Of a stretch of DNA of 60,364 nucleotides, positions 6,604 to 32,001 are shown piece after piece. The DNA lies in IMG/VR virus record IMGVR_UViG_3300043468_000417, positions 1 through 60,364 of that record; one strand, 5' to 3'. Both the position numbers and the translations under genes were made by a program. This DNA comes from a virus. Lineage: Duplodnaviria > Caudoviricetes. Under the pieces are notes generated by a model, which did not search any database, was not told where the DNA came from, and saw only the letters and a program-made list of their open reading frames with translations. How positions within the stretch are numbered: position 1 is the first letter of the stretch; every line of letters starts with the position of its first letter.

Positions 6604-6951
6604 ATGGCAGGTCAAAAGAATTGGGAAGTGGATCAAAACACTACCTTCACATTTACCGTTGAATATAAAGACGACGACGGAGATCCAATCGTTCTTACAA
6701 ATTGTTCCGCAAAAATGCAGGTTCGTGATACTAAGGGTGGAAGCAAGTTAGCTTTTAGTCTTACATCACCATCAGGCGGAATACTAATAGACGAAGCCCT
6801 AGGCAAGTTAACTATTAAGATGACCCCTACTCAAACCAATAAATTATTCTATCCAAAGTCCTCATATGACATTATGCTAACTGATAGCAATTTGAATAAA
6901 ACCAAATTACTTGAAGGATTCATAACTTTGAGCAGATCGGTGACCATTTAA
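6604..6951 (+). CDS. Ig-like beta-sandwich virion anchor protein (BppU-N-like)
   Basis: DQNTTF...AKMQVR...YDIML...LLEG pattern typical of fibre anchors. Confidence 0.6.
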   Translation: MAGQKNWEVDQNTTFTFTVEYKDDDGDPIVLTNCSAKMQVRDTKGGSKLAFSLTSPSGGILIDEALGKLTIKMTPTQTNKLFYPKSSYDIMLTDSNLNKTKLLEGFITLSRSVTI

Positions 6952-7409
6952 TGCCAATCACTAATAATAATAGCAATCCGACAGTAGTCGTAACAGAAGA
7001 AGTTAAAAGAGTAGTTTTAAATACTCCAGGACCTCAAGGTCCTAGAGGAAAAACAATTTTGAATGGAGATGGTGTTCCAGCCGATAATCTAGGTTTCGAA
7101 GGCGATTTCTACTATGACAAACTAACAACTAGATTCTATGGCCCAAAGCCAAGTGATGCTTCTTGGACTGGGGCAACAAACTATCTACTCAGCACAAGCA
7201 CCCTTACATACCCTTTCTCAATAAATCAGGTTGTAAATGCAGGATCGTACTACTACCTTGAAATAACACATAATATGGGCTATAACCCAAATGTTACCGT
7301 CAAGAATAGCGCTGGAGATATATTAGAAACAGGAATAGACTATAATAGTATTAACAAAATTACACTGACAATGGCTCAACCATTCGGTGGGACAGCATAC
7401 CTGTCTTAA
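6951..7409 (+). CDS. Virion structural protein with short collagen motif and C-terminal HNxG domain
   Basis: GPQGPRG, GDFYYD...FYGPK, THNMGYNPNVTV. Confidence 0.65.
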   Translation: MPITNNNSNPTVVVTEEVKRVVLNTPGPQGPRGKTILNGDGVPADNLGFEGDFYYDKLTTRFYGPKPSDASWTGATNYLLSTSTLTYPFSINQVVNAGSYYYLEITHNMGYNPNVTVKNSAGDILETGIDYNSINKITLTMAQPFGGTAYLS

Positions 7410-7423
7410 GGGAGATATAGCAT

Positions 7424-8845
7424 ATGGCAAGATTATTTGTAACTGACATAAATCTGAATAAGAATGAACTTCAGAATGCCAGAATTCAGGGGCTTTCAAC
7501 AGCTCCATCTAGTCCAGTAACTGGACAAATTTATTATGATACATCAAATAACACGATGTACTACTACAATGGATTGTCATCACCAAATGGTCCATGGATG
7601 TCAATGTCTGGTTCTACAGAAGTTATTCAAGATGTTATTGGCTCAGCAGTATTAGGCGGAGTTGGATTATCAGCAACATACAATGACACAGCTGGAACAA
7701 CAACAATAGATTTAGACAATACAGCAGTAACAGCAGGCTCTTATGGTTCTTCAACAGCAATACCTACATTTACAGTAGATGCCCAAGGACGTTTGACTGC
7801 CGCAGGAACTGCAACAGTAGCAACAACTCTTTCAATTGCTGCAGAATCTGGAACAGCAGACACAGTAAATCTTCTTACAGATACTTTGACATTTGCCGCA
7901 GGCGAAGGAATCAATACAACTGTAACAGATAACACAATTACAATTGCTGGAGAAGATGCTTCTACTAGTAATAAGGGTGTTGCCTCATTCAATTCAGATG
8001 ACTTTAACACAACAGACGGACACGTAGAACTAGAAGATACTGTTGTTAAAACAGTAACAACTGATTCTGGAGCATTAACTCCATCGTCACACGGTCTATC
8101 TATCCTTGGCGGAGAAGGAATCGATGTAACTCATACTGGAACATCAATTACAGTAGCAGGAGAAGATGCAACCACAACTAATAAGGGTGTGGCTTCTTTC
8201 GCAGATGCAGACTTTACAGTAACATCTGGCGCAGTAACAATTAAAAATGTTAACCTTGCCACACAGACAACTGGAAACTATATTGCAACTATTGCTGGAA
8301 CAGCAAATGAAGTTGAGGTTTCAGGTTCTGGCTCAGAAAACTCAGCGGTAACAATTGGTCTTCCAAATGACGTAACAATTACTAATAACCTTACAGTTGG
8401 CGGTAACTTAAACGTAACTGGAACAATTAACTCAGTAAATACCACTCAGGTAAATATTGTTGACAATAAGATTAATCTTAATACCGACTTTACTGGATCT
8501 CCAACAGCAGATGCTGGAATCCGTGTAGAGCGTGGAGATGGCGCAGATGTTGAAATCCTATGGAATGAGACAAATGACAACTGGACCCTTACAAACAATG
8601 GTACAAACTATCATGCAATTGTTCGCAAGTTTGCTTCAGATATTACCACAACAGAGTCAGCACCATTTACATTTACTGCAACACACAATTTAGGAACAAG
8701 AGATGTAACAGTTCAAGTATTTGCAACTGCGTCTCCATATAATCAAATTGAGTGTGACGTAGATCATACATCTACATCAGTTGTAACACTAACATTTGCA
8801 GCAGCACCAACAGCTGGACAATATAGAGTAGTTATAACAGGATAA
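7424..8845 (+). CDS. Fibre shaft protein
   Basis: TVDAQGRLT, duplicated GEDA..NKGVASF repeat, C-terminal THNLGTRDV domain. Confidence 0.7.
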   Translation: MARLFVTDINLNKNELQNARIQGLSTAPSSPVTGQIYYDTSNNTMYYYNGLSSPNGPWMSMSGSTEVIQDVIGSAVLGGVGLSATYNDTAGTTTIDLDNTAVTAGSYGSSTAIPTFTVDAQGRLTAAGTATVATTLSIAAESGTADTVNLLTDTLTFAAGEGINTTVTDNTITIAGEDASTSNKGVASFNSDDFNTTDGHVELEDTVVKTVTTDSGALTPSSHGLSILGGEGIDVTHTGTSITVAGEDATTTNKGVASFADADFTVTSGAVTIKNVNLATQTTGNYIATIAGTANEVEVSGSGSENSAVTIGLPNDVTITNNLTVGGNLNVTGTINSVNTTQVNIVDNKINLNTDFTGSPTADAGIRVERGDGADVEILWNETNDNWTLTNNGTNYHAIVRKFASDITTTESAPFTFTATHNLGTRDVTVQVFATASPYNQIECDVDHTSTSVVTLTFAAAPTAGQYRVVITG

Positions 8846-8847
8846 TT

Positions 8848-9303
8848 ATGGCAAAGCAATTTAAAACACCAATTGCTCCGCCAGCCTTAAGTTCAGATCC
8901 AACAGGAACTGTTGCTGGTGAAATATACTATAATACAGTTTCTGGTGCTTTAAAGATTTATAATGGAACAACCTGGTCTTTACTAACAGGTGGAGGCGGG
9001 GGAACTTCAAATTCATTTGAAGTTTTGTCAACATCTCCAGCATCTCCATCTCAAGGAAGAGTTTATTTTGACTCTTCAGAAAATACAATTAAAGTATATA
9101 ACGGTAATATCTGGTATGATGTTGCGGGGCCAAAAGAATTATTGGATCACCAACACTATGCTGGAGAAGGACTGGTAAGGCATGTAGATTATGGACAATA
9201 TGTAGATGAGTTGAATTATATTGTTTCTATGGATGGCGGAACCGCAAGTACATCATATGCTTCTGCACCAAACAATGATATAATAGACGGAGGAGCAGCA
9301 TAG
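8848..9303 (+). CDS. Fibre connector protein
   Basis: Two GxxYY/F...KxYNGxxW motifs, ends IIDGGAA. Confidence 0.6.
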   Translation: MAKQFKTPIAPPALSSDPTGTVAGEIYYNTVSGALKIYNGTTWSLLTGGGGGTSNSFEVLSTSPASPSQGRVYFDSSENTIKVYNGNIWYDVAGPKELLDHQHYAGEGLVRHVDYGQYVDELNYIVSMDGGTASTSYASAPNNDIIDGGAA

Positions 9304-9306
9304 AAT

Positions 9307-11454
9307 ATGGCAATTAGAATTCAGTTACGCAGAGACACCGCAGCAAATTGGACTTCATCGAATCCAGTATTGCGAGCAGGTGAGTTGGGTATTGAAACAG
9401 ATACTCTTAAATTTAAAATTGGTAATGGTTCCAGCACATGGACACAAATTACAAATTATGCAAACGTTACAAGTACAGGCTTATCAAATAGCCTAAATGA
9501 TTATATACTTTCTGCAACTAAGGGAACCCCTGGAGGACCAGCAGCACTAGATTCAAATGGCGACCTCCTTGTTCCAGAAAATTCAGTCATTCTTTGGAAT
9601 GATGCTGATTATACTTATCAAACAACAGTAAGTGCTACACAGCCTACAGCAAATAGAACAATTACTTTGCCAGATGCTACTGGAACAGTAGCGCTTACAA
9701 CAGATCTTTCCCCATATGCCCCTTTATCTGGAGCTACATTTACAGGAAACATTAGCATTCCAACAGCAATTACTTTTGAAGGCGCAACAGCAAATGACTT
9801 TGAAACAACTATTCAGGTAACAGATCCAACTGCAGATAGAACTATCACTTTCCCAGATGCAGGTGGTACAGTAGCTTTGACCACAAATATTCCTTCAACT
9901 ACAGACAATTTGTCAGAAGGATCAACAAATAAATATTATACAGATGAAAGAGCACAGGATGCCATTGCAACAGCAATTGCGGCGGGAACTCATACAAATA
10001 TAACTATCACATATGATGATGATAATAACAAGTTTACTTTTGTAGGAGCAAACACCTACTCAGATGAAAATGCACAAGATGCAGTAGGAAATGCAGTCGG
10101 CACAGGATTGTCGTATAACGACACAACTGGTGCTATATCAGTAGATACTACAGCAATTCAGGCTCGTGTAGCAGATGTTTCAGATACAGAAATTGGATAT
10201 CTAAATGGTGTTACTTCAGGAATTCAAACACAGATTGATAATAAGGCTTCATTATCTGGAGCAACATTTACAGGAGCCGTTTCTGGAACAAGCTTAACGC
10301 TTTCTGGAGACCTAACAGTTAATGGAACTACTACAACATTAAATTCAACAACAATATCTGTTGATGATAAAAATATTGAACTAGGATCAGTCGCTACCCC
10401 ATCAGATGCTACAGCAGATGGCGGCGGAATAACTCTAAAGGGAGCAACAGATAAAACTTTCAATTGGGTAGATGCTACAGACGCATGGACCTCATCAGAG
10501 CACTTAAACCTTGCTTCAGGAAAGTCACTATATTTAAACGGTACACTATTAAAGGATGCTACAGAAACTCTTACAAATAAGACACTTACATCTCCAGTTA
10601 TTAATACCCCAACTGGGATTACAAAGTCAGATGTAGGTCTTGCAAATGTAGACAATACAACAGATGCAGGAAAGCCTGTCTCAACTGCTACCCAAACAGC
10701 TCTTGATCTTAAACTTGCTTCTGCAACAGCAGCTACAACTTATGAAACAATTACTAACGTAGCTTTAAAGGCACCACTTGCTGACCCAACATTTACTGGA
10801 ACAGTAACACTTCCTTCAACAACATCAATTGGAGATGTATCTTCAACTGAATTATCTTATCTAAACAATGTAACTTCTGCAATTCAAACACAATTGGATG
10901 GCAAGGTAGATGAGTCACTATTTGATACAAAGGGAGATATTTTAGTTGCTTCCGCAGATAACACACCAGCAAAATTAGCAGCTGGAACAAACGGATATTT
11001 GCTTACAGCAAACTCAGCTGCAGCTAATGGAGTTGAGTGGGCGGCAGCACCAGTAAGTCTTCCAACTCAAACAGATAATTCAGGAAAGTATTTAACTACA
11101 GATGGAACCACAGCATCTTGGGGAACTCTAGTAGTACCAATTACAACTGGTACATCAACAGTTTCAGCAAATACAGCAACGACAATAGATACAACAGCAT
11201 TGTCAGCGTTCACATCTATTGAATATATGGTTTCATTAAAGCAGGGTTCAAAGATTAGAACATCTAAGGTAGTTGTTCAGACTGACGGAACTTCTGTAGA
11301 TATGACAGAGTTTGCAATTACAGAAACTGGAGGAACAATTGCAGGAGTAGTTGTTTCAGTCGCAGTATCTTCAACAAATGCAGTACTACAATTAACAGCA
11401 ACAGATGCAGTAACTACAAACGTAACGGTAAAATTTAGCAAAGTAGCACTTTAA
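9307..11454 (+). CDS. Fibre protein with Mtd/HylP-like N-terminal domain
   Basis: IQLRRDTAANW...GELGIETDTLKFKIG; PTADRTITxPDA repeats; C-terminal beta domain. Confidence 0.8.
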   Translation: MAIRIQLRRDTAANWTSSNPVLRAGELGIETDTLKFKIGNGSSTWTQITNYANVTSTGLSNSLNDYILSATKGTPGGPAALDSNGDLLVPENSVILWNDADYTYQTTVSATQPTANRTITLPDATGTVALTTDLSPYAPLSGATFTGNISIPTAITFEGATANDFETTIQVTDPTADRTITFPDAGGTVALTTNIPSTTDNLSEGSTNKYYTDERAQDAIATAIAAGTHTNITITYDDDNNKFTFVGANTYSDENAQDAVGNAVGTGLSYNDTTGAISVDTTAIQARVADVSDTEIGYLNGVTSGIQTQIDNKASLSGATFTGAVSGTSLTLSGDLTVNGTTTTLNSTTISVDDKNIELGSVATPSDATADGGGITLKGATDKTFNWVDATDAWTSSEHLNLASGKSLYLNGTLLKDATETLTNKTLTSPVINTPTGITKSDVGLANVDNTTDAGKPVSTATQTALDLKLASATAATTYETITNVALKAPLADPTFTGTVTLPSTTSIGDVSSTELSYLNNVTSAIQTQLDGKVDESLFDTKGDILVASADNTPAKLAAGTNGYLLTANSAAANGVEWAAAPVSLPTQTDNSGKYLTTDGTTASWGTLVVPITTGTSTVSANTATTIDTTALSAFTSIEYMVSLKQGSKIRTSKVVVQTDGTSVDMTEFAITETGGTIAGVVVSVAVSSTNAVLQLTATDAVTTNVTVKFSKVAL

Positions 11455-11468
11455 GGGGGTAATAGATA

Positions 11469-12191
11469 ATGGCAGATAAAAACTTTAAAGTTAAATCTGG
11501 ATTAAATATCCCGATTGCTTCGGCTGCAATTCTTACCACTGATTCAAGTGGTAATATATCTTCTACCGCCGTTCTTCCAATTACAGCAGGCGGAACAGGA
11601 CAAACATCAGCGACTAATGCTATAAATGCCTTGCTCCCAATTCAAAATGGATCAACAATAAACTATTCAATCCAGTCAGATGGAACAAACATCTCATGGG
11701 CTAAGCTATATAATCAGGTAATTCAAGATGCAGGAGTTTCTGTAAATCCCCGTCGAAATATAAATTTTGTAGGAGGAACATTTGCAGATAATTCAGGATC
11801 TGATACTACAACTATCACATTGCCTCCAACTCCAAAGTATCAAACATCTGCTCCATCTAGTCCAGTAGTTGGACAAATTTGGGTGGACTCAGATGATGAC
11901 GTAGATACATTTAATCCTTATATGATTAGTAGAAATAAGTTTACTGCAACTAGCGGACAGACTGAATTTGCTACAACACAAACTTTTATTCAGGGGTACG
12001 AACAAGTATTTCTTAATGGTATACTTTTGGTATATGGAGATGACTATACAGCTCCTACTACATCCTCCGTCGTTTTATCTTCTGGAGCAGCAGTCGGAGA
12101 TTCAGTAGAAATTATTATTCAAACTAATTTATCCGCATATATAGTTGAAACGCCTCTTAGGGCTTCAACATTTATGTTGATGGGGGCATAA
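11469..12191 (+). CDS. Fibre adaptor (KNFKVK N-terminus, ATxGQT domain, FMLMGA tail)
   Basis: Motifs shared with ORFs at 19267 and 21972. Confidence 0.65.
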   Translation: MADKNFKVKSGLNIPIASAAILTTDSSGNISSTAVLPITAGGTGQTSATNAINALLPIQNGSTINYSIQSDGTNISWAKLYNQVIQDAGVSVNPRRNINFVGGTFADNSGSDTTTITLPPTPKYQTSAPSSPVVGQIWVDSDDDVDTFNPYMISRNKFTATSGQTEFATTQTFIQGYEQVFLNGILLVYGDDYTAPTTSSVVLSSGAAVGDSVEIIIQTNLSAYIVETPLRASTFMLMGA

Positions 12192-12535
12192 TGGCAACAG
12201 AAGTATTTAAGATACTAGGGCAGGTAGCACCAGGAACAACTAATACAGCATTGTATACCGTTCCAACAGGTAAGTCTGCAGTCATATCAACTATTGCTGT
12301 ATGTAATCAAACATCTTCTGATGTAACATTCAGAATTGCTACACAAAAAGCAGCAGATGCCTCAACATCTACAATTTTAGCTAAACAATATATTGCGTAT
12401 GGTTCAACAGTAGCTGCCAACGACACAACATTTGTCACTATCGGAGCTACGCTTGCGGCGGGAGATCAAATAATCGTTTACGGTTCATCTTCTAGTCTTT
12501 CATTCAACGCATATGGCTCCGAGGTGACACCTTAA
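12191..12535 (+). CDS. Small beta-sandwich virion protein
   Basis: FKILGQ...LYTVP...SFNAYGSE; stop/start coupled on both sides. Confidence 0.6.
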   Translation: MATEVFKILGQVAPGTTNTALYTVPTGKSAVISTIAVCNQTSSDVTFRIATQKAADASTSTILAKQYIAYGSTVAANDTTFVTIGATLAAGDQIIVYGSSSSLSFNAYGSEVTP

Positions 12536-14085
12536 TGGGAGTAAGTAAACTAAATCCATCAGCAGGAGGAATTCCATACGGAGATACAGCAGGACGCCCT
12601 GCAAACCCAGGAACGGGAAGACTTTATTCAAATGGTGAAGAAAAGCGTTTAGAGCTTTACACATCTTCAGGATGGCAGAACATTGTTTCTGAAACTCCAG
12701 GAGTTGTTTCTGTATCAGGAAATTATCTTGAATCAACAGGCTCAGGCACAATAGAAATTACAGGTACAAATTTTACAACAGGAGCAATTGCTTCTGTTAT
12801 TGGAACAAACGGTGTTGAAGTAAATGCTAATTCAACTACTGTAAACTCAATAGTGTCAGTCACGGCGGTATTTTCAGGACTATCAAATGCTAATGAGCCT
12901 TACGATGTTAAGGTAACCAATACATCAAATCTATTTGGTTTGCTGACTGATGCTCTTTATGTTAATGCAAGCCCAGTTTGGGTAACTGCTTCAGGGTCTC
13001 TAGGTACATTTAATGAACAAGTTTCTGTATCTGTTTCTGCAACAGCAACGGATTCTGATTCTACAATTACCTATGCATTAGCTAGCGGATCTTCTTTACC
13101 TTCTGGAGTATCTTTAAATTCTTCAACAGGCGCAATTACTGGAACACTTCCAGATATTGCAACAAATACAACATACAGTTTTTCAATAAATGCCTCTGAT
13201 GGGCTAAACACAATACCAAGATCATTTAGCATACAATCTGTTGCTATGCCTGTTGCTGAAATCTTAGTCGTTGGCGGCGGTGGTTCTGGCGCTGTTGGAA
13301 ACGGTGGTTCTGGAGGAGGAGGTGCTGGAGGACTAGTTTACTCATCATCTTATGCACTACTGGGATCAGCACTAGTTACCATTGGAAATGGTGGAGCGTC
13401 TGTAAGCTCAGGCCAAACTGGACTTAATGGAGAGAATACTGTTTTTGGAAACATAACAGCATTTGGCGGAGGTGCTGGTAAGGGTTGGACTGGCGGCGGA
13501 GGAAATAGCGGTGGTTCTGGCGGAGGCGGAGGATCTGGTAGCGGTTCTTCTGCTGGAGGAGGTGCTTCAACACAAACAAGCCCATCAGGTGCAACGGGTT
13601 ATGGAAATAGCGGTGGAACTGGACACGCAAGCGGAGGCCCATATTCTGGCGGAGGCGGAGGTGGAGCTGGCGCAGTAGGACAAACTGTAACAGCAAATAC
13701 TTCTGTTGCTAATGGTGGCATTGGTCGTGCTTACAGCATTACTGGGACCTCAACATACTATGCAGGCGGAGGTGGATCTGGAACCGAAGAAGGCAATTAT
13801 ACTTCTAGCGGATTAGGAGGCTCTGGTGGGGGAGGCCGAGGTGGGTATTTAAATACTGTTGGTACTGCAGGAACTGCAAACACTGGTGGTGGTGGCGGAG
13901 GTGGCGGATATCCACTAGCTTATTACGCAAGTGGTGCGGGAGGTAGTGGTGTTGTAATTATTGCATATGCAGATACATTCCCTGCTATTACAACAATTCC
14001 TGGAACATTAACTTATACCCAACCAACACGTGCAGGGTATAGAGTTTATAGATTTACAGCAGGTTCAGGAACGGTAACATTCTAA
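12535..14085 (+). CDS. Adhesin-like protein: IPT/Ig domains plus glycine-rich domain
   Basis: GDTAGRP, ITGTNF, LPSGVSLNSSTG, VVGGGG...GGSGVVII. Confidence 0.75.
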   Translation: MGVSKLNPSAGGIPYGDTAGRPANPGTGRLYSNGEEKRLELYTSSGWQNIVSETPGVVSVSGNYLESTGSGTIEITGTNFTTGAIASVIGTNGVEVNANSTTVNSIVSVTAVFSGLSNANEPYDVKVTNTSNLFGLLTDALYVNASPVWVTASGSLGTFNEQVSVSVSATATDSDSTITYALASGSSLPSGVSLNSSTGAITGTLPDIATNTTYSFSINASDGLNTIPRSFSIQSVAMPVAEILVVGGGGSGAVGNGGSGGGGAGGLVYSSSYALLGSALVTIGNGGASVSSGQTGLNGENTVFGNITAFGGGAGKGWTGGGGNSGGSGGGGGSGSGSSAGGGASTQTSPSGATGYGNSGGTGHASGGPYSGGGGGGAGAVGQTVTANTSVANGGIGRAYSITGTSTYYAGGGGSGTEEGNYTSSGLGGSGGGGRGGYLNTVGTAGTANTGGGGGGGGYPLAYYASGAGGSGVVIIAYADTFPAITTIPGTLTYTQPTRAGYRVYRFTAGSGTVTF

Positions 14086-14489
14086 TGGCTAAAACAGTTA
14101 AAATTTGGAACGGCACAGATTGGGTAGATCTTGGAGTAAAAGCTGCTCTTCCTCCTGATTATATAGATTCTACTGCTCTTAATTCCGCCCTTGCTTCATA
14201 TAAGCAAGAAGTAAATCTTACAGTATCATCTAACATAACATTAGTGGCGGGACGCAGATATTTTGTAGATACAACAGCTGCTAGAACATTAACACTTCCT
14301 GCAAGTCCAACACTTGGACAAGAAATTGTAGTTGTAGATGCATCTGGAACAGCTGGAACATATAACATTACAATTAATTCAAACAGTGGTAAAATTAACG
14401 GAACAGTACAAAACCTTACAATTGACGTAGATGGAGCAGGCGCTTCATTAATCTATACAGGATCTGCATATGGCTGGAGGGTAGGATAA
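14085..14489 (+). CDS. Fibre adaptor (KIWNG N-terminus plus YFVDT/TLTLPASP domain)
   Basis: Paralog of 26172..26678 and of the C-terminus of 21972..22955. Confidence 0.65.
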   Translation: MAKTVKIWNGTDWVDLGVKAALPPDYIDSTALNSALASYKQEVNLTVSSNITLVAGRRYFVDTTAARTLTLPASPTLGQEIVVVDASGTAGTYNITINSNSGKINGTVQNLTIDVDGAGASLIYTGSAYGWRVG

Positions 14490-17071: not shown

Positions 17072-17076
17072 AACAA

Positions 17077-17105
17077 TAGACTTATCATTTATTAAATGGT
17101 AAAAT
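17077..17105 (+). promoter_or_regulatory. Sigma70-type promoter
   Basis: TAGACT-N17-TAAAAT with extended TG. Confidence 0.6.
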
Positions 17106-17138
17106 ATAAAGAAGCAAGACAACTAACAAAGGAGAAAA

Positions 17139-17519: not shown

Positions 17520-17524
17520 CATAA

Positions 17525-19267: not shown

Positions 19268-20991
19268 TGGCCAATAAAGATTTTAAGGTAAAAAATGGGT
19301 TAGATATCCAGACTCCCCTCCCTGTTTCTATGGGCGGAACTGGACAAACCTCTACTACTAATACCCTAAATTCTTTACTACCGTCCCAAGATGGAAACAA
19401 TAATAAAGTTCTAGCAACAGACGGAACTAATACAACCTGGGTGGCACAATCAGTTGCATATCAAAGAGGCGGAACAGCAAGTAGACCAGCATCTCCTACA
19501 GCAGGAGATCTTTATTATAATACTGATAACAACTACTTTGAAAGCTACACAGCAAATGGTTGGTTTCCAATTGCTGCCGCTCCTGGAATTCCTACATCTG
19601 TTGTAGCAACTAACCAGCCATCTGGCAGAGCATATAATAATGGAAAAATGTCTGTAGTATTTTCTACAGCAACAAATGCAGGAGCACCAAGTTCTTTTAT
19701 AGTTACCCCAACTCCTACTACATCTCCAACAACATTTACTGGATCTTCTAGTCCAATTGAAGTAACAGGGTTAGCTTCTAGCACACAATATACTTATACG
19801 GTTGTTGCAACTAGTCCATATGGCACATCATCTGCTTCATCTGCCTCAACAGGAGTAACTGCAACTACAGTGCCACAGGCACCAAGTATAAGCGCTACAG
19901 GTGGTAATGCACAAGCAACAATTACAATTACACCAGGTGCAACTGGTGGTTCAGAAATTACTGGATATTCAATTATTTCAAACCCAGTTACAACAACAGA
20001 AACCACTTCAAATACAACTTATACATTTACTGGTTTAACAAATGGAACATCTTATACATTTACAGCAACAGCAACAAATGCTAACGGAACATCAGCGGCA
20101 AGTTCTGCATCTAACTCAATTACACCAAACGTTACAGGTATTGGATATTTGTATGGAGGTAGCTCTGTATCAACAATAAATAGATTAAACTTTGCTACAG
20201 ATTCTTACTCTACTTTATCTGCTACTGCGCCAGCAGCAATCGGTTCAGGCGCTGGTAGTGCAAATTCTGGAGTTGCAGGATATGCTTATGGTGGCTATGA
20301 ATCAAATTGGACTGATAGAATAGCTAAACTTACATTTTCGGGAGAGACTGTATCAACAATATCGGCAACTATTGCTACTGCCGTGTATGGCAATGCATCT
20401 TTTTCAAATAATGGAACAGCGGGATTTACAGTAAATGGGCATCAAGGAAGTTCATTTTTAGATCAAGTAAATAAATTAAATTACTCAAATGACACTAGGT
20501 CGCTAGGCGGAACAATGGGACCACTATACTTAACAAGTGGAATATCTAATAAAGGATCCGCTGGGTATACAGTAGGTGGATATAGTTGGGGACTAGGTTT
20601 CCCGAATAGAGTTTATAAGTATACATTTTCCAACGATACTGGATCCTTATTGGGAACAACCTATGCGGTAGCTGCGTATAATATTGTTACTTGGGAAAAT
20701 GATGGAACTGCTGGTTATGCTGCTGGTGGTGGAGATATGATGCATACTGGTGTACACAAAATGCCATTCTCAACTGATACAATATCTAGCGCAGTAGCAT
20801 CATTAGCACAAGGAGGAGACTGGGGAGGCGGATTGTCAAGGAGGGGTAACGCTGGATACTATTGTTTAGGTAGAATTAATGTAAATACTACATCTAAGTT
20901 TTTATTTGCAACAGATACAAGAAGTGAAGTTGGTGGAACTTTAACTACTAGAAGTGGCATACTTTCAATGTCTAATAACGGAGTATTTTAA
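19267..20991 (+). CDS. Adhesin-like protein: KDFKVK N-terminus, 2x FN3, Kelch-like six-blade propeller
   Basis: Six G[YF]xxxG blade repeats in the C-terminal half. Confidence 0.7.
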   Translation: MANKDFKVKNGLDIQTPLPVSMGGTGQTSTTNTLNSLLPSQDGNNNKVLATDGTNTTWVAQSVAYQRGGTASRPASPTAGDLYYNTDNNYFESYTANGWFPIAAAPGIPTSVVATNQPSGRAYNNGKMSVVFSTATNAGAPSSFIVTPTPTTSPTTFTGSSSPIEVTGLASSTQYTYTVVATSPYGTSSASSASTGVTATTVPQAPSISATGGNAQATITITPGATGGSEITGYSIISNPVTTTETTSNTTYTFTGLTNGTSYTFTATATNANGTSAASSASNSITPNVTGIGYLYGGSSVSTINRLNFATDSYSTLSATAPAAIGSGAGSANSGVAGYAYGGYESNWTDRIAKLTFSGETVSTISATIATAVYGNASFSNNGTAGFTVNGHQGSSFLDQVNKLNYSNDTRSLGGTMGPLYLTSGISNKGSAGYTVGGYSWGLGFPNRVYKYTFSNDTGSLLGTTYAVAAYNIVTWENDGTAGYAAGGGDMMHTGVHKMPFSTDTISSAVASLAQGGDWGGGLSRRGNAGYYCLGRINVNTTSKFLFATDTRSEVGGTLTTRSGILSMSNNGVF

Positions 20992-20997
20992 AATAAT

Positions 20998-21561
20998 ATG
21001 GATAATTTACCTTTACCAATAGAACCATCACACCCAATATATCTTGCATTAACAGAAATACAAAAGCCTAGGTCCAGATTTCAACTTGAAAAATTTGTAT
21101 TAGGCCAACACGATACTGTTGAACAGCAATATAAACAATGTCTAGTTGAAATTCAAGAACTAATTTATAACTTAAAAATTGTTAGTTTAAAATTAAAAAA
21201 ACAGCAAGTAGAAATAGATAGGCTAAAAGCATCAGAAGATGAAATTGATTTAATTGATTCTGAAATAAAAGAAATAGAAATGCACCAAACAAAACTTGTA
21301 ATGCTCGGCGCACAAAGAGAGTTGCAGGACTTAGTTGGTATTTGGGAGTCTTTTGAGCATAAGTATTCTTATGAAGAATTAGAAAGTTCTCAGTTAGAGT
21401 ACTGGGATAAAAGATTAAAGAGACAGTCAATATTAGAAAACATAGGCGGAAGTCAAGCACAGGCATCTCATTTAGAAGCTCTTAGACAAATAGGTATTAT
21501 TGAAATGGCTCCTAATGGAATAAAAGAAGTTGAATTAGAAGATCGTAAGGAGATATCGTGA
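20998..21561 (+). CDS. Helical/coiled-coil hypothetical protein
   Basis: Charged helical 187-aa ORF directly after the propeller gene. Confidence 0.6.
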   Translation: MDNLPLPIEPSHPIYLALTEIQKPRSRFQLEKFVLGQHDTVEQQYKQCLVEIQELIYNLKIVSLKLKKQQVEIDRLKASEDEIDLIDSEIKEIEMHQTKLVMLGAQRELQDLVGIWESFEHKYSYEELESSQLEYWDKRLKRQSILENIGGSQAQASHLEALRQIGIIEMAPNGIKEVELEDRKEIS

Positions 21562-21863
21562 AATATTACACTTGGAAATTAGATTGGGCTACGCAAGAAG
21601 GAATAGGACCAACTGAAAAAATAAATACAGAAAATGTTCGAATTGAACCGCATTTTACTATAGGAGAGCCTTCAAATCCTAATTCTATAACTTATGGATA
21701 TTTATTAGAAGGTTTAATTAACTTAGATGAATTAAGTAAATGGTCTGTAACAGAAATAACAATTGATGAAATGTTGGCTGCTGCTAAAACATTAAAAGAT
21801 GAGTCATACATTGAAAATGGGTTTATTATATTCCCTCCAATGCCAGCATTACAGGCTGAATAG
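21558..21863 (+). CDS. Hypothetical protein (GTG start)
   Basis: GTGA overlap, AAGGAG RBS. Confidence 0.65.
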   Translation: MKYYTWKLDWATQEGIGPTEKINTENVRIEPHFTIGEPSNPNSITYGYLLEGLINLDELSKWSVTEITIDEMLAAAKTLKDESYIENGFIIFPPMPALQAE

Positions 21864-21971: not shown

Positions 21972-22955
21972 ATGGCAAATAAAGACTTTAAGGTCAAGAA
22001 TAAACTTGTTATATCAGGTTTAACTAATGCTAATGGCGTTTTGCTAGCCGAAAATCATGCCGTCGATTCCCACACAAATTTAGCTACACAATATGGCGGA
22101 ACTGGAACAACAACCTCTCCTACTTCTGGCCAAGTATTATATTCAGCTTCTGGCTCTACATATGCCCCAACTACTTTATCATCATTAATTCAGGGATCTA
22201 GTTATCAAGCAGATGCCCCTTCTTCCCCCGACATTGGCGATATATGGATTGAATCAGATTCTACTTCAGACTCATTTGACCCCAACATTATTCGCCGTCA
22301 CACATTTACAGCAACGGCGGGACAAACAAATTTCGTAGCATCAGTAGCATTTATAGATGGATATGAGCAGGTATACTTCAATGGTCTTCTACTATTAAAG
22401 ACAACAGATTATACAACATCTTCTGGTACTACTGTTACTCTTGGTTCCGCCGCAGCAGCAGGCGACATTGTAGAGATAGTTACAATAACAAATTTAAATT
22501 CAACAAATACATATACTCAGTCTGAGATTAATACTATTGTTACAACTCAGGTAAATAATTTAATTGATTCCGCACCTTCCGCCTTAAATACGCTAAATGA
22601 ATTAGCAGCGGCATTGGGCGATGATGCAAGTTTTGCTACAACAGTTACAAACTCTTTGGCTGGCAAGAAGAATGAGACAGCCTCATCAATATCAGCAAAT
22701 ACAAATTTAGCGGTGGGAGTAAGATATTTTGTAACATCTGCTTCTGCTCTTACTCTAACATTACCCTCATCCCCTTCAGTAAATGATCAAATAGATGTAT
22801 TTGATGCTTCTGGAAACGCTTCGACGTATAATATAACTGTGGCCCGTAACTCCAAGTTAATTAATGGTAATGCGGGAAATCTAATTATTGACGTAAACGG
22901 CGGATGGTTTACTCTTGTTTTCACAGGTAATACATATGGATGGAAGGTAGCATAA
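21972..22955 (+). CDS. Multi-domain fibre adaptor
   Basis: KDFKVK, APSSP..GDIW, FTATAGQT, APSALNTLNELAAALGDD, YFV...TLTLPSSP. Confidence 0.7.
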   Translation: MANKDFKVKNKLVISGLTNANGVLLAENHAVDSHTNLATQYGGTGTTTSPTSGQVLYSASGSTYAPTTLSSLIQGSSYQADAPSSPDIGDIWIESDSTSDSFDPNIIRRHTFTATAGQTNFVASVAFIDGYEQVYFNGLLLLKTTDYTTSSGTTVTLGSAAAAGDIVEIVTITNLNSTNTYTQSEINTIVTTQVNNLIDSAPSALNTLNELAAALGDDASFATTVTNSLAGKKNETASSISANTNLAVGVRYFVTSASALTLTLPSSPSVNDQIDVFDASGNASTYNITVARNSKLINGNAGNLIIDVNGGWFTLVFTGNTYGWKVA

Positions 22956-24439
22956 TGGCCGATTTAAGAGCATCAGGATTAGGCGGGGTTCCAAAAGGAG
23001 AAACCGCAGATAGACCATCATCTCCATCAGTTGGCGACGTATTTTATAATGGTACATTAGGTTGTTTAGAGATTTATACGGCACAAGGATGGGTTGCAAA
23101 TAGTGCACCTCCAGGAATTCCAACAATTGGAACAACAACATATTCTGGAACAGACAAAGCATATAATAATTCATCTGCATCTGTAGCATTTACACCTGGT
23201 GAAGGTGGAGGCTTACCAAATTCATATCGTGCAACATCATCTCCTGGTGGATTTACAGGTACTGCATCATCTTCTCCGATTACAGTAAGCGGATTACAAT
23301 CAGCAACTGCCTATACATTTTCAGTAACAGGAACAAATAATTTTGGCACATCTGCAGGATCAACTAATTCTAATTCAATTACAGCAAACACTGTTCCTCA
23401 AATACCTGGAACTCCAGTTGCAGCATATGCTTCAAACACATCCGCAACATTAACTTTTACTGCTGGAGCAACAGGAGGATCATCAATAACAAACTATAAG
23501 TATTCTACAGATGGCACAAATTATACAGCACTGTCTCCAGCACAAACTTCAAGCCCATTAACTATAACTGGATTAACTGCATTTACAAATTATACATTTT
23601 ATATCAAAGCAGTAAATGTAAATGGAGATTCAGTAGCATCACCCATCAGCAATAGTGTATTTACTGGTCCTACAGTTTCTGGAGGAACGTTGACTTCTGA
23701 CTCAACGTATTATTATAGAACATTTAGCGCAACTGACAGTTTAATAATTTCTGGTGCTTCAGTAACTGCAGATACACTTATAGTTGCTGGAGGAGGAGGT
23801 GCTGGATATGATGTTGGCGGCGGAGGCGGCGGAGGCGGAGTTATTTATGCAACTTCAAAAAGTTTATCACCAGCAACCTGGGCAATAACTATTGGCGCTG
23901 GAGGCTCATCTGATAACAATGGATCTCTTACAAAAGGCGCAAATGGACAAAATACAACAGCATTTGGCTTGACAGCATTAGGAGGCGGCGGCGGCGGAAC
24001 ATATAACTCTGTAACGGCTGGTCAATCTGGTGGTTCTGGTGGTGGAGCAGGAATGAACAGTAGTGGAGGAGCTGCAACTCAAACTTCTGGTTCTGGTTAT
24101 ACTGGTTATGGAAATTCTGGAGGTTCTGCGGGTGCGGCTTATGGATCAGGAGGCGGCGGAGGTGCAGGTGGAGTTGGTCAAAATAACACACCGAGTAACA
24201 GAGTTGCTGGTGGACTTCCCTTGTATAGCAGTATAACTGGATCATCTATAGCATACGCTGGTGGCGGCTATGGAAATAGCGATGGCGGTGCAGTATATAA
24301 TCCAGGATATGATTTAAATAATAACTATGTCGGCTACTATGGATTTGGAGCAAATGGTACTGGTACAGGTTCAACTTATCCTAGCGGAAATGGCGGAGTA
24401 GTAATTGTTCGATATACAAAGTCTCAAGTTGGTGGATAA
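22955..24439 (+). CDS. Adhesin-like protein: 2x FN3 plus glycine-rich domain
   Basis: Start moved to ATG 22955 (TAATG overlap); GETADRP, FN3 strands, Gly runs. Confidence 0.75.
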   Translation: MADLRASGLGGVPKGETADRPSSPSVGDVFYNGTLGCLEIYTAQGWVANSAPPGIPTIGTTTYSGTDKAYNNSSASVAFTPGEGGGLPNSYRATSSPGGFTGTASSSPITVSGLQSATAYTFSVTGTNNFGTSAGSTNSNSITANTVPQIPGTPVAAYASNTSATLTFTAGATGGSSITNYKYSTDGTNYTALSPAQTSSPLTITGLTAFTNYTFYIKAVNVNGDSVASPISNSVFTGPTVSGGTLTSDSTYYYRTFSATDSLIISGASVTADTLIVAGGGGAGYDVGGGGGGGGVIYATSKSLSPATWAITIGAGGSSDNNGSLTKGANGQNTTAFGLTALGGGGGGTYNSVTAGQSGGSGGGAGMNSSGGAATQTSGSGYTGYGNSGGSAGAAYGSGGGGGAGGVGQNNTPSNRVAGGLPLYSSITGSSIAYAGGGYGNSDGGAVYNPGYDLNNNYVGYYGFGANGTGTGSTYPSGNGGVVIVRYTKSQVGG

Positions 24440-26172
24440 TGTCTAGAATCAGAGATATAGCAAACTTATTCAGCGCAAATACGTCGGCAGCGACGGATTC
24501 AGAAGTATCTGCTGCTATCTCTGCACATAACTCTTCAACAACAACAGTACATGGTATTTCTGATACTTCCGCCCTTGCTACATCTACATCTGTTGCATCA
24601 GATATTTCAACACATAATACAACAGCAAATGGACATGTTAAAAGAGGTAATACTGCTTCTCGTCCCGCTTCACCTACAACTGGTGACATGTATATGAATA
24701 CACAATTAGGATATCCAGAATTTTATGAAGGAACTGCATGGGTTCCAATTGGAGCAGATCCAACTGCGCCATCGTCTGTTGTTGCTACAAACTCAGGATC
24801 TGGACGGGCATTCAATAATGGTCAAGCATCTGTTGCATTTACAGCAGGAACAGTACCAGGATCTAGTTATACAGTAACATCTTCCCCAGGTTCTTATTAT
24901 AATACTGGTGCATCATCTCCAATCCTTGTAACAGGATTACAATCAAATACATCTTATACTTTTACTGCCACCGCATCAAATGTTTATGGCACGTCTGTTG
25001 CCTCATCTGAGAGTAGCGCAATTACTGCAACTACTGTGCCTGCAGCTCCTAGCGTAAGTGCTGTTGGAGCATCTCAATCAGCAACAATTACCATTACCCC
25101 AGGGGCTACTGGTGGTTCAGCAATTACAGGATATTCAATAATTTCAAATCCAGCAACTACAACTCAAACAGCCTCATCTTCACCTTACACATTTACTGGA
25201 CTTACAAATGGAACATCTTATACATTTACAGCAACAGCAACAAACGCTAATGGATCCTCGGCAGCAAGTAGCGCAAGCAATAGTATAACTGCAGCAAACC
25301 CAGATATTAATGTTCATTATCTAGTTGTAGCTGGAGGAGGTTCTGGGGGAACAGCTGATGATGGCGGTGCGGGCGGCGGTGCAGGAGGATTCAGAACTTC
25401 ATTTGGAACTTCTGGAAGAAACTCTTCTGCAGAATCTCAATTAATTTTAAATTCATCAATACAATATACTATTACTGTTGGAGGAGGAGGATCTGGAGTT
25501 TTGGGTTCCCCAGGAACTGGTAAAGGAAATAATGGTATAGCTTCATCTATCAAAAATGGAGGAACCACATTAGTAGAATCTCTTGGCGGTGGCGGTGGTG
25601 GTGGGATTGTTGATGCAAATAACGCATCTACTGGAAACATGAATGGTGGAAACGGTGGTTGCGGCGGCGGTGCAGGACAAAGATCTGGATACGGTGCTAC
25701 ACCAGGAACTGGAGCCACAGGACAAGGTTTTGGCGGAGGCTCTCTTGACGGATCCACCGTTGATGCTGGTGCAGGAGGCGGCGGTGCAGGACAAGTTGGA
25801 GGAAGTACTTCTGGTCAATCTGGTGGATCTGGAGGAGCGGGAATTTCTTCTACAATAACTGGCTCATCTGTATTTTATTCAGGAGGAGGCGGAGGTGCAG
25901 GTTCTAATTCTTCTGGTTCTGGTGGATCTGGTGTAGGCGGCGCTGGCGCTGCTGGCTCAGGATCAGGTGGATCTAACGGTTCAACAAATTTTGGCGGTGG
26001 AGGAGGCGGATCAAATGCTCATGCTCAATCTTCTGGTAATGGAGGTTCTGGAGTTGTAATACTTCGTACCTCTGTAGCAGCAGCATCTACAACAGGCTCA
26101 CCAGATACAACTGGAACTGGTGGGGGAACGTATGTTTACAAATTTACAGCGACAGGGAGTATAACCTTCTAA
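24439..26172 (+). CDS. Adhesin-like protein: MSRIRD N-terminus, 2x FN3, glycine-rich domain
   Basis: Paralog of 17525 (VHGISDT, GNTASRPASP). Confidence 0.75.
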   Translation: MSRIRDIANLFSANTSAATDSEVSAAISAHNSSTTTVHGISDTSALATSTSVASDISTHNTTANGHVKRGNTASRPASPTTGDMYMNTQLGYPEFYEGTAWVPIGADPTAPSSVVATNSGSGRAFNNGQASVAFTAGTVPGSSYTVTSSPGSYYNTGASSPILVTGLQSNTSYTFTATASNVYGTSVASSESSAITATTVPAAPSVSAVGASQSATITITPGATGGSAITGYSIISNPATTTQTASSSPYTFTGLTNGTSYTFTATATNANGSSAASSASNSITAANPDINVHYLVVAGGGSGGTADDGGAGGGAGGFRTSFGTSGRNSSAESQLILNSSIQYTITVGGGGSGVLGSPGTGKGNNGIASSIKNGGTTLVESLGGGGGGGIVDANNASTGNMNGGNGGCGGGAGQRSGYGATPGTGATGQGFGGGSLDGSTVDAGAGGGGAGQVGGSTSGQSGGSGGAGISSTITGSSVFYSGGGGGAGSNSSGSGGSGVGGAGAAGSGSGGSNGSTNFGGGGGGSNAHAQSSGNGGSGVVILRTSVAAASTTGSPDTTGTGGGTYVYKFTATGSITF

Positions 26173-26678
26173 TGGCTAAATTAATAAGAGTATGGGATGG
26201 AAGTGCTTGGCAAGAAGTCGGCACCGCTATTCCTAATGGCCTTACAACAGATGGAACACAAACATTAACTAATAAAACTATATCTGGTGCATCTAATACT
26301 TTAACTAATATTGGAAATGCCTCTCTAACTAATTCAGCAATTACCGTTAATGGGTCCTCCGTTTCTTTGGGCGGAAGCGTAACAATTGTTACAGGACCAG
26401 CATCTTCTGCGGTATCATCTAATATAACAATGGCGGCTAATAATAATTACTTTGTAGATACTTCAGCGGCAAGAACCCTTACTCTTCCTGCCAGCCCAAC
26501 CCTAGGAGACACCATTGCAATATATGATGCATCAGGGACGGCGGCAACAAACAATATTACAATAGCAAGAAATGGCAACAAGATCAATGGACAAACAGAA
26601 AATGCTATAATAGATGTTGATCAATCAAGTTCTATATTTACATACACAGGCGCAACAGTTGGGTGGAGGTTCGATTAA
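26172..26678 (+). CDS. Fibre adaptor (RVWDG N-terminus plus YFVDT/TLTLPASP domain)
   Basis: Paralog of 14085. Confidence 0.65.
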   Translation: MAKLIRVWDGSAWQEVGTAIPNGLTTDGTQTLTNKTISGASNTLTNIGNASLTNSAITVNGSSVSLGGSVTIVTGPASSAVSSNITMAANNNYFVDTSAARTLTLPASPTLGDTIAIYDASGTAATNNITIARNGNKINGQTENAIIDVDQSSSIFTYTGATVGWRFD

Positions 26679-28207
26679 TGGCAATTAGAAAATCATCAAA
26701 TTCAGGTATTCCTTTTGGCAATACAGCAGGTCGTCCTGCTAGCCCTTCTACTGGCCAGCCATATTTTAATGGCGAGGCTGGAAGACTTGAGCTATACACA
26801 TCAAATGGTTGGCAGAATATTGTACAGGAGACCCCTGGCATAGCCAGCATATCAGGTACATATAATGAGTCTACAGGTTCTGGTACATTTACAATTTCAG
26901 GAACAAATTTTGTTTTAGGCGGAATTGCTTACGCTGTTGGAACAAATGGAACTGAGTATCAGGCAACAACATCGACCATTAATTCAGTTGTTCAAATGAC
27001 GGCCGTATTTACTGGTCTTTCTGCAGCATATGAGCCGTATGATATTAAGGTTTTAAACCCTTCAAATTTATTTGGTCTATTGCCAGATGCATTTTATATT
27101 AATGATTCTCCAGTATGGAGCACAACTACAGGATCACTTGGCACATGGAATGGATCAAGTATTCAATTAGCAGCAACCGATGATGAGTCAAATACTATTA
27201 CATATTCTGTAACATCAGGATCTTTACCAACTGGACTATCTCTTTCTTCAGCAGGATTAATATCTGGAACAAGTACTGCGAGTGGTGGAACATACACATT
27301 TACAGTTTCTGCTTCTGATGGAAGCAATACAGCAGTTACAAGATCATTTAGTATTACTATTCCATTCCCAACAGTTTCTGGCGGTACAATTACATTATCT
27401 GGACTATATAGAATTCATTCTTTTACATCAAGCGGGACACTTGCAATACAAAACGGTTCAGTAGATACTGAGTATCTTATTGTCGCAGGAGGCGGTGGAG
27501 GCGGATCAAGATACGGTGGTGGTGGAGGTGCTGGTGGAATGATAACTGGCTCAACTTCATTATCATCTGGAAATCATTCAATTTTAATAGGTGGCGGAGG
27601 TGCTGGAGCTACTATGGGACCTGGTGATTCAACTGGCGGCGGAGGTGCTTCTGGAGTAAATTCATCAATTAATGCAATATCTGCAACTGGAGGCGGCGGA
27701 GGTGGATCAGCAGATGATTTTACTTCAGGTAAAAATGGTGGATCTGGAGGTGGAGCTTTTTCAGGAAGCATTGGTCAAGGAATTTCTGGACAAGGAAATA
27801 ATGGAGGTACTGGTTCTGGAACTGGAACCTATCCTTATAAATGTGGTGGCGGCGGAGGTGCTGGCGGGGTAGGAGAAAATGCTAATACTAGCGCAGGATA
27901 TGGCGGCGCTGGAGGAGTAGGACTTCAATCTTCAATTACAGGAACTTCAACTTACTATGCAGGCGGTGGCGGTGGCGGTTCACATAATCCATATTCTTCA
28001 AGATCTATTTCTTTAGGAGGTGCTGGTGGTGGAGGAAATTCTGGTAATTATGGACAAAGAAGCCCTGGACAAAACGGATCAACAAACACTGGCGGAGGTG
28101 CTGGAGGAGCATCTACAGACAGTAGTGGAGACTCTAACACTATTGGTGGTGTAGGCGGATCTGGAATTGTTATTGTTAGGTACCTTAAATCAGCAGTAGG
28201 TTTATAG
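26678..28207 (+). CDS. Adhesin-like protein: IPT/Ig plus glycine-rich domain
   Basis: Start moved to ATG 26678; RLELYTS.GWQNIV.ETPG shared with 12535. Confidence 0.75.
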   Translation: MAIRKSSNSGIPFGNTAGRPASPSTGQPYFNGEAGRLELYTSNGWQNIVQETPGIASISGTYNESTGSGTFTISGTNFVLGGIAYAVGTNGTEYQATTSTINSVVQMTAVFTGLSAAYEPYDIKVLNPSNLFGLLPDAFYINDSPVWSTTTGSLGTWNGSSIQLAATDDESNTITYSVTSGSLPTGLSLSSAGLISGTSTASGGTYTFTVSASDGSNTAVTRSFSITIPFPTVSGGTITLSGLYRIHSFTSSGTLAIQNGSVDTEYLIVAGGGGGGSRYGGGGGAGGMITGSTSLSSGNHSILIGGGGAGATMGPGDSTGGGGASGVNSSINAISATGGGGGGSADDFTSGKNGGSGGGAFSGSIGQGISGQGNNGGTGSGTGTYPYKCGGGGGAGGVGENANTSAGYGGAGGVGLQSSITGTSTYYAGGGGGGSHNPYSSRSISLGGAGGGGNSGNYGQRSPGQNGSTNTGGGAGGASTDSSGDSNTIGGVGGSGIVIVRYLKSAVGL

Positions 28208-31994: not shown

Positions 31995-32001
31995 TAAGCA
32001 T

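Follow-up and report, generated by a model that had tools for sequence, protein, structure and literature searches.

A gene array probably encoding a multi-level, branched tail fibre in an uncultured siphovirus

The fibre array and its genes

The linear IMG/VR virus record IMGVR_UViG_3300043468_000417 (60,364 bases, estimated to be 56% complete; the window hereafter, by which we mean the whole stretch analysed) carries at positions 6604-28207 an array of twenty genes, all on the plus strand, which sits between ribonucleotide reductase and portal genes. We conclude that this array probably encodes a multi-level, branched, non-covalent lateral tail fibre of an uncultured siphovirus. The long-tailed siphovirus assignment follows from the genes located 3' of the array, which encode the portal, a protease/scaffold, a capsid protein, a 2160-residue tape measure and distal tail proteins. 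Genes are designated below by their first position, and the words collar, base, stalk, hub, adaptor and tip in the following list denote putative roles.

6604-6951, plus strand: collar protein, 115 residues, like T5 p132 / DT57C LtfC (PHROG and structure match)
6951-7409, plus strand: small base protein, 152 residues, with a beta-strand-like N-terminus, a short collagen-like GPQGPRGK stretch and a C-terminal HNxG domain
7424-8845, plus strand: fibre segment, 473 residues, with a MARLFVTDINLNKNEL start, one full P..SP..G..YY...Y.G..W hairpin motif and a C-terminal HNxG domain
8848-9303, plus strand: adaptor, 151 residues, with a MAKQFKTPI start, two hairpin motifs and a C-terminal ...IIDGGAA tail
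9307-11454, plus strand: stalk fibre, 715 residues, with a Mtd_N start and, at its C-terminal end, a conserved domain of about 110-170 residues
11469-12191, plus strand: hub A, 240 residues, with a KNFKVK start, an APSSPVVGQIW strand and an FTAT beta-sandwich domain
12191-12535, plus strand: small protein, 114 residues, recurring after hub A, candidate adaptor for 12535 (phrog_1276, E 4e-8)
12535-14085, plus strand: tip protein, 516 residues, with a MGVSKLNPSAGGIPYG start, He_PIG and Gly_rich_2 (Pfam E 6.4e-18 and 1.7e-12)
14085-14489, plus strand: adaptor, 134 residues, with a MAKTVKIWNGTDW start and a C-terminal XD1 (relatives in 73 loci)
14489-17071, plus strand: tip protein, 860 residues, with a MAISFSSLSGG start and two Gly_rich_2 domains (Pfam E 3.1e-21)
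17139-17519, plus strand: small protein, 126 residues, recurring after Gly-rich tip genes (phrog_7759, E 1.7e-40)
17525-19267, plus strand: tip protein, 580 residues, with a MTRARD start, fn3 and Gly_rich_2 (52% identical to 24439)
19267-20991, plus strand: tip protein, 574 residues, with a KDFKVK start, fn3 and six repeats of about 48 residues at the C-terminal end
20998-21863, plus strand: two accessory open reading frames (ORFs) after the propeller-like gene (187 residues, helical, phrog_1409 E 8.4e-8; 101 residues)
21972-22955, plus strand: hub B, 327 residues, with a KDFKVK start, an APSSPDIGDIW strand, FTAT, a helical LNTLNELAAALGDD segment and a C-terminal XD1
22955-24439, plus strand: tip protein, 494 residues, with a MADLRASGLGG start (D at position 3), fn3 and Gly_rich_2
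24439-26172, plus strand: tip protein, 577 residues, with a MSRIRD start, fn3 and Gly_rich_2
26172-26678, plus strand: adaptor, 168 residues, with a MAKLIRVWDGSAW start and a C-terminal XD1
26678-28207, plus strand: tip protein, 509 residues, with a MAIRKSSNSGIPFG start, He_PIG and Gly_rich_2
28211-29956, plus strand: Laminin_G_3 (ConA-like lectin) protein, 581 residues (Pfam E 1.7e-8; phrog_11584)

An earlier sequence-only reading had described this region as a plug-and-socket assembly, in which N-terminal peptides (plugs) dock onto domains (sockets) of other proteins, and all eight motif classes that it assigned to named genes were found there in the translations or, for Mtd_N and XD1, by profile. 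The C-terminal domains of 6951 and 7424 contain HNMG and HNLG, and 7424 and 8848 start with MARLFVTDI and MAKQFKTPI. The two hubs carry FTATSGQT and APSSPVVGQIW (11469) and FTATAGQT and APSSPDIGDIW (21972); the corresponding starts are MTRARD on 17525 and MSRIRD on 24439 for the former motif, and MAKTVKIWNG on 14085 and MAKLIRVWDG on 26172 for the latter. (The TTG start codon of 17525 lies six bases past the stop of 17139-17519, and its paralog 24439 starts with ATG.) K[ND]FKVK is the start of 11469, 19267 and 21972. Finally, the YFV..TLTLP[AS]SP..GW domain occurs three times, in 14085, at the C-terminus of 21972 and in 26172 (E 1e-85, 4.7e-29 and 1.2e-29), each time directly before an adhesin gene as had been proposed: the genes of the Gly-rich proteins 14489, 22955 and 26678 begin at the stop codons of these three genes, the start of 14489 overlapping the stop of 14085. 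Four strict N-terminal patterns were absent from all 2397 minus-strand control ORFs of the loci fetched for comparison, versus 30-83 plus-strand ORFs with a match.

The matching numbers of plugs and sockets on which that reading relied are real in the window, but they constitute weak, non-independent evidence there. Genes 11469-19267 and 21972-28207 are paralogous blocks (paralog pairs 11469/21972, 14085/26172, 12535/26663 and 17525/24439), and block duplication alone yields the 2:2 counts. Moreover, as the APSSP motif lies about 25 residues from the FTAT domain in one protein, the two are not separately counted parts in the window.

As for the seven tips, six stand firmly as Gly-rich proteins: Gly_rich_2 (PF21722) is present in six proteins at 30.1-76.9 bits (gathering cut-off 24.3), together with fn3 or He_PIG spacers. 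The seventh, 19267, is less secure, its six repeats being consistent with a propeller while Pfam gave no match in the repeat region.

XD1 domains and the peptides that follow them

The YFV/TLTLP domain is XD1 of CBA120 TSP4, T4 gp9 and gp10. In 26172 it matches residues 68-173 of 7rfv_A (phmmer E 5.9e-11; 7rej_A and 7rfo_A up to 1.5e-10), and in the CBA120 TSP4 structure paper the Gly76-79 and Gly179-Arg188 linkers delimit XD1, which that paper relates to T4 gp9/gp10. Similarly, a model of hub B (predicted local distance difference test, pLDDT, of 70 overall and 85-90 in XD1; confident domains FTAT at 107-173 and XD1 at 238-327) retrieved TSP4-N (E 6.4e-7), gp9 (1qex, E 5.3e-4) and gp10 (5iv5 and 2fl8) with Foldseek.

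Two scans of viral contigs provided 73 and 17 related loci, and for ten contigs, picked on length, the remaining array was fetched. XD1 is C-terminal in 143 of the 143 XD1 ORF rows of the fetched loci (these rows include overlapping loci, some contigs being seen twice), and 125 downstream genes, with 87 distinct N-termini, begin between -4 and +30 nucleotides from the stop of the XD1 gene. We defined the XD1 plug pattern as M-x-[ILV]-x-x-[STL] or M-x-D-[IL]-x-x-[STN]. Within the arrays, it is present in all 34 genes that follow XD1 (versus 24 of the 353 other genes), so that the placement of XD1 directly before an adhesin, noticed in the window, extends to the related arrays as a placement before plug-bearing genes. 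The bodies behind this plug are Gly-rich tips (24), unrelated proteins (nine) and a 65-residue adaptor (one), and XD1 itself occurs behind MAK..W, KNFKVK, M[ST]RxRD and Mtd_N starts. The possibility that an XD1 gene and the next gene are a single gene broken by error was rejected, as the stop-start junction recurs in 125 cases at diverse loci.

Multimer modelling, which had been suggested as a check of cognate pairs, was run for XD1 of 26172 and its neighbour 26678. Modelled together, three copies each of this XD1 and of residues 1-60 of 26678 gave a score of 0.75 (best of three controls: 0.01), with our own alignments and three copies per chain, a setting unlike that of the tool's calibration, in which 58 of 80 solved complexes and 2 of 110 mismatched pairs attain the mark for this score. 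At least 88% of contacts are common to the runs, with a partner pLDDT of at least 61. On the plug side, the modelled contacts involve residues 1-6 and 8-9 only; on the XD1 side, they involve residues 124-125, 130, 138-149, 152, 154 and 167-168.

Plug and contact strand also co-vary. The motif N.GN in the XD1 contact strand is present in 28 of 28 cases in which the plug has D at position 3 and in none of 60 with other plugs, and this match holds in three adaptor contexts (KNFKVK, MTR and other), although co-inheritance of neighbouring genes can produce such an association. The three XD1-plug pairs of the window belong to three different co-varying subtypes.

XD1 was found in 631 phage records. 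In the T4-like cultured cyanophage Synechococcus phage S-SSM7 (NC_015287.1, 93784-100662), XD1 forms the end of SSSM7_113, annotated as a tail fiber protein, and three paralogous proteins of about 262 residues come next, all starting with MA[NS]Y[RS]SY[RK]K. This apparent order of socket then plug suggests that the XD1 rule may be general.

Stalk, hubs and adaptors in related arrays

After merging three pairs of overlapping loci, we obtained 13 arrays bounded by the Laminin_G_3 end gene, 12 of which are also bounded by the collar gene; the incomplete array U004 was excluded from pairing counts, which were taken after manual checks. The Laminin_G_3 gene ends the array in all 13 cases, just before the portal region. 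Plug and socket counts that do not correlate across relatives had been named beforehand as an outcome that would refute the plug-and-socket proposal; the counts do correlate. The number of FTAT domains equals that of M[ST]RxRD starts in 12 of the 13 arrays (exception: G009, 2:3), and the number of APSSP..IW strands equals that of MAK..W starts in 12 of 13 (exception: G004, 3:4). Swapped pairings are equal less often (FTAT with MAK..W, 7/13; APSSP..IW with M[ST]RxRD, 8/13), and FTAT equals XD1, an unrelated class, in a single array. Shuffling of arrays gave P <=1e-4 for the proposed pairs with kinship ignored, a value that overstates independence because the 13 arrays are related.

In the five arrays with unequal FTAT and APSSP numbers (G005, G008, G009, U037 and U032), MTR starts track FTAT in four and MAK..W starts track APSSP in all five, whereas the swapped pairing fits none. 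For example, the G008 hub has kept APSSP..IW and lost FTAT, and this array encodes a MAK..W adaptor but lacks an MTR protein. The view that the APSSP motif is a mere part of FTAT was thus partly rejected, as some arrays have one element only and each plug class tracks its own element.

A natural fusion adds to the support for this pairing. The first hub of U032 (295 residues) joins the equivalents of residues 1-223 of 11469 (60% identity) and 36-134 of 14085 (78%), without the APSSP segment of about 30 residues and without the MAK..W start, and the following gene is an orthologue of 14489 (83% identity). The proposed non-covalent connectors, APSSP and MAK..W, are exactly the elements that are gone. 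In G005 and G009, hub A is found as three genes, encoding a 132-136-residue KNFKVK protein, a 100-residue 12191-like protein and a 404-450-residue protein with FTAT at its start; this split is the reverse of the U032 fusion, with the 12191 family located between the two hub halves.

FTAT is modelled as a confident small beta-sandwich. Its profile matches the tandem N-terminal domains of the Klebsiella K1 depolymerase 9k4a_A (112-176 and 188-246, E 3.8e-4). It also matches Pfam Phage_T7_tail, the T7 fibre N-terminal family, weakly (E 0.006, 3 of 25 members, below cut-off), and hhalign against the part of the PhaxI TSP4 homologue that spans XD2-XD3 gave E 0.028 at a probability of 1.8%. The Foldseek matches of hub B also include T7-type fibre N-termini over about 75 aligned columns; as query ranges are not printed, these may not concern FTAT. 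A phmmer search of 11469 against the PDB returned chance-level matches only.

The stalk is tied to the KNFKVK proteins by a similar correlation, in agreement with the link that had been drawn between the Mtd-like fibre 9307 and these proteins. Mtd_N (PF18454) is present in 9307 (E 1.5e-15, 57.3 bits, gathering cut-off 26.3). Arrays have three KNFKVK proteins (ten arrays, including U004) or none (four). The C-terminal domain of the stalk is common to all ten KNFKVK arrays, despite stalk lengths ranging from 715 to 1126 residues; in G003 and G008, where KNFKVK proteins are absent, the stalk ends in a different C-terminal domain, and G006 and G007 have neither stalk nor KNFKVK protein. This C-terminal domain is a candidate socket for the three KNFKVK proteins. 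(In G003 and G008, the stretch about 17.9-20.5 kb into the array has no long plus-strand ORFs and is flanked by duplicated fibre genes with MATQ[LI]I[DN]LG starts; it may be an inserted minus-strand cassette.) The KNFKVK start fronts hubs, XD1 adaptors, Gly-rich tips, the propeller-like protein and a 137-residue adaptor; that of 19267 in particular fronts an XD1 adaptor or a Gly-rich body in relatives. Overall, five N-terminal peptide classes sit on unrelated bodies.

We also detected a pair that had been overlooked. A [DN]GGxx C-terminal tail is present on the protein directly preceding a Mtd_N protein in 13 of 15 distinct cases, whatever its N-terminal class (four different plug-class starts are found on such proteins); of the two exceptions, one has NGGSA three residues from the called end and the other, which lacks the tail, lies 159 nucleotides upstream. 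Thus 8848 looks like an adaptor joining 7424 to the stalk 9307.

Upstream of these genes, the order collar, HNxG protein, MAR.F fibre and small adaptor is identical in all whole arrays, and the putative links between HNxG and MA[RK]xF are invariant, being present in every array. The collar protein 6604 has the Ig-like fold and the size of T5-type p132/LtfC proteins. It matches phrog_1084 (E 5.8e-23) and phrog_3304, 'L-shaped tail fiber protein assembly' (E 9.9e-6), and the top four Foldseek matches of its model (pLDDT 87) in the PDB are 7qg9_L/J and 8hqz_Q/T (TMq 0.72-0.77, 17-20% identity). These are chains of 137-140 residues from the tail tip of T5 and the baseplate of DT57C, respectively, which we take to be p132/LtfC from their length and from the table of the DT57C paper (LtfC, residues 1-140). 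This suggests that 6604 serves at the tail tip as the fibre base, into which 6951 (HNxG seed hidden Markov model match, place after the collar gene kept across arrays) may insert by analogy with LtfA. In 7424, phrog_38707, phrog_8309 and phrog_2647 match residues 382-473, and the start class is identical in every whole array.

Several small genes recur beside these components. For 12191, a divergent XD1 was considered and rejected (hhalign probability 0.7%); its family profile found no relative in the PDB, Pfam gave nothing above cut-off and the ESM Atlas only unnamed viral clusters. The phrog_7759 family of 17139 (start MAH[FWY]A.[IL][DN]ENN) is located between a Gly-rich tip gene and the next plug-bearing gene, in 0-4 copies per array. 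By analogy with Pam3 gp25, it may be a candidate fibre chaperone; Pfam gave nothing above cut-off for 17139 and the ESM Atlas only unnamed viral clusters, so that no homology backs this role. The accessory ORFs at 20998-21863 are confined to the window among the loci searched (two hidden Markov model matches each, in the window and in its own locus copy); the second has no PHROG match, and 20998 has nothing above cut-off in Pfam.

Proposed assembly, rival readings and known systems

Domain identities, gene-order rules, count correlations, a natural fusion and one modelled interface, all obtained by computation, lead us to the following assembly. The first component would be the collar 6604, carrying a stalk built from four proteins (6951, 7424, 8848 and 9307). 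The next level would comprise the three proteins with a KNFKVK start, namely hub A (11469), the propeller-like tip (19267) and hub B (21972). Each hub would take one tip with a M[ST]RxRD start on or near FTAT and one adaptor with a MAK..W start at its APSSP..IW strand. Every XD1 (14085, 26172 and hub B) would then take the protein encoded directly downstream, whose first nine or so residues would join the XD1 sheet, the outcome being a fibre with seven tips at its distal ends, of which six would be Gly-rich and one propeller-like. The structure would sit on the tail, be built of trimers and hold all branches on one fibre, and its tips would bind host receptors; for the Gly-rich tips, this role is suggested by analogy.

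A number of points weigh against this assembly. The evidence is entirely computational, and includes the modelling and shuffling results with the limits given above. In the CBA120 TSP4 structure paper, XD1 is a spacer, the docking sites being XD2 and XD3. The collar assignment receives only chance-level matches from phmmer of 6604 against the PDB, and the Ig-like fold of this protein also matches many immunoglobulin domains, at lower rank. The scheme assigns no site to tip 12535 and protein 12191 (the MGVSKLNPSAGGIPYG start of 12535 resembles the XD1 plug class, and the protein is 49% identical to 26663-28207), and it does not account for the third MTR start with two FTAT domains in G009 or the fourth MAK..W start with three APSSP strands in G004. 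Finally, the array adjoins head genes, and three KNFKVK proteins with one plug and a single stalk could compete for a site instead of co-occupying it.

This last point leads to an alternative that we regard as improbable but worth serious consideration, namely a cassette of alternative tips, in which proteins with the same plug, such as the three KNFKVK proteins or tips whose XD1 plugs are similar, compete for one site and virions carry different subsets as a bet hedge at the level of the population, instead of a seven-tip tree. Three KNFKVK starts facing one stalk C-terminal domain speak for such a cassette, as do the three same-start paralogs behind the XD1-ended fibre gene of S-SSM7 and the freedom with which relatives swap bodies behind a given plug. 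However, the number three is fixed in all ten arrays, and the KNFKVK proteins keep positionally conserved residues (K[SN]GL..P; KNGLDIQ.PLP; KNKL...G), which suggests three distinct places; likewise, the three co-varying types of XD1-plug pairs in the window suggest orthogonal sites. A more radical view, which we find barely credible, dispenses with docking altogether: the shared N-termini would be leftovers of tandem duplication in a paralog family whose fibres each attach directly to the tail. The two modules of the window are clearly duplicated, and matched counts follow trivially. This view fits poorly with N-terminal stretches of 8-15 residues kept on dissimilar bodies (XD1 adaptor, 73-residue adaptor, Gly-rich tip and propeller-like protein), with independent arrays in which a socket element and its plug class were lost together, and with a modelled interface that uses exactly the conserved residues.

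The location of the array raises the question of whether the fibres decorate the capsid or neck instead of the tail tip, to which we give little credence. The array lies between the ribonucleotide reductase and the portal, a long way from the genes for the tape measure and the distal tail, the HNxG domain matches a PHROG labelled head decoration, and neck and capsid-spike chains are among the weaker Foldseek matches. Conversely, the best structural matches of 6604 are tail-tip collar chains of T5 and DT57C, and all solved cases that we found of XD1, Mtd_N and gp17-N-like modules belong to tail fibres. The lateral fibre and collar genes of T5 are also encoded apart from its distal tail genes.

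Beyond the branched tail fibre itself, we propose tentatively, at somewhat short of even odds, a combinatorial, orthogonal system of peptide addresses, in which at least six plug-socket classes rewire the fibre tree, adaptors convert one address into another and XD1 acts as a general terminal socket. In these classes, the MA[RK]xF start would pair with the HNxG domain, the Mtd_N domain with the [DN]GGxx tail, the KNFKVK start with the C-terminal domain of the stalk and the M[ST]RxRD start with FTAT; the MAK..W and APSSP..IW strands would together make up a single beta-hairpin in trans; and XD1 would receive an N-terminal strand of about nine residues, in several co-varying subtypes, three of them in one virion. 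Rewiring would occur through module swap, fusion or split, and the XD1 socket would extend to cultured cyanophages and pelagiphages.

The sequence-only reading knew of no description of such a grammar. The general scheme is in print: passages of Latka et al. 2019 (PMC6872550) describe, for Klebsiella phages, anchor domains, T4gp10-like branching domains and conserved N-terminal peptides down to seven residues (7-29 residues), with standard units re-used for up to 11 receptor-binding proteins, and cover K1-5 (gp37), G7C (gp66-gp63.1) and CBA120. The present array shares with that scheme short conserved N-terminal peptides on variable bodies; it differs from what these passages describe by at least six plug-socket classes, none of which they name, by several levels, separate adaptors, a possible split hairpin and non-enzymatic tips. 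As the Latka scheme, CBA120, DT57C and RaK2 are all branched, the principle is known. What is new here is the number of levels and classes, the address-translating adaptors, XD1 as a terminal socket, the possible hairpin completed in trans, the Gly-rich tips and the host group. The literature searches made here, to which this result is limited, found no account of the fibres of the present phage group.

Among individual systems, TSP1-4 of CBA120 and other Kuttervirus members share with the array XD1 homology, in sequence and fold, and branched trimeric receptor-binding proteins on small beta-sandwich modules. However, CBA120 (TSP4-N = AD-XD1-XD2-XD3) docks at XD2/XD3, whereas XD1 is the end of the polypeptide and the modelled socket in the present array; CBA120 is a myovirus with beta-helix tailspikes as tips, whereas the present virus is a siphovirus with Gly-rich tips, and XD2/XD3 were not clearly found in it. 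The DT57C paper reports a dodecameric LtfC collar that holds three fibres, LtfA N-termini that donate beta-strands to LtfC, and LtfB hanging on LtfA. The array resembles T5/DT57C, as described there, in its collar fold and in belonging to a siphovirus, and DT57C fibres are also branched, with N-terminal beta-strand donation to a beta-sandwich; the difference lies in two fibre proteins in DT57C versus, here, about 16 proteins that are fibres or adaptors, with seven tips. No sequence relatives of LtfA or pb1 were found in the present array. RaK2 and phiK64-1 (Alcyoneusvirus) have many tail fibre proteins (nine in RaK2 long fibres) in a branched apparatus, but these phages are jumbo myoviruses, their tips are depolymerases and their proteins are unrelated. 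Finally, Pam3 gp24 and S16 gp38 have distal domains rich in glycine, for which receptor binding has been proposed, and a chaperone gene follows downstream; no sequence relation to the present tips was found, which makes this an analogy only.

If the proposed assembly is true, it ranks with the most elaborate fibres of the non-covalent kind to be deduced from sequence, its carriers being abundant aquatic phages that are as yet uncultured, and XD1 has a docking role not assigned in the structural literature. Peptide-to-domain rules could then be used to predict receptor-binding architecture, and thereby host range, from metagenomic contigs; natural gain, fusion and loss of branches would be raw material for host-range evolution, and orthogonal peptide-domain pairs would be useful parts for modular fibres in laboratory phages.

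Searches against 50,697 phage records gave no megablast match for the whole array, and tblastn of hub B against the cultured phages of this set gave only four weak matches, all on XD1; phmmer of 26678-28207 against the PDB returned none. The portal (30364-34397) and the class II ribonucleotide reductase (4291-6225) are 59% and 67% identical, respectively, to those of Streptomyces phages of about 130 kb. The G+C content of the window is 35-46%, though its portal and reductase are closest to those of Streptomyces phages, and the host may be a low-GC aquatic actinobacterium. The tape measure gene (39242-45724; 2160 residues) implies a very long tail. Just 5' of the reductase and fibre array, positions 3220-4203 carry a gene resembling family 1/4 glycosyltransferases (Pfam E 8.7e-7).

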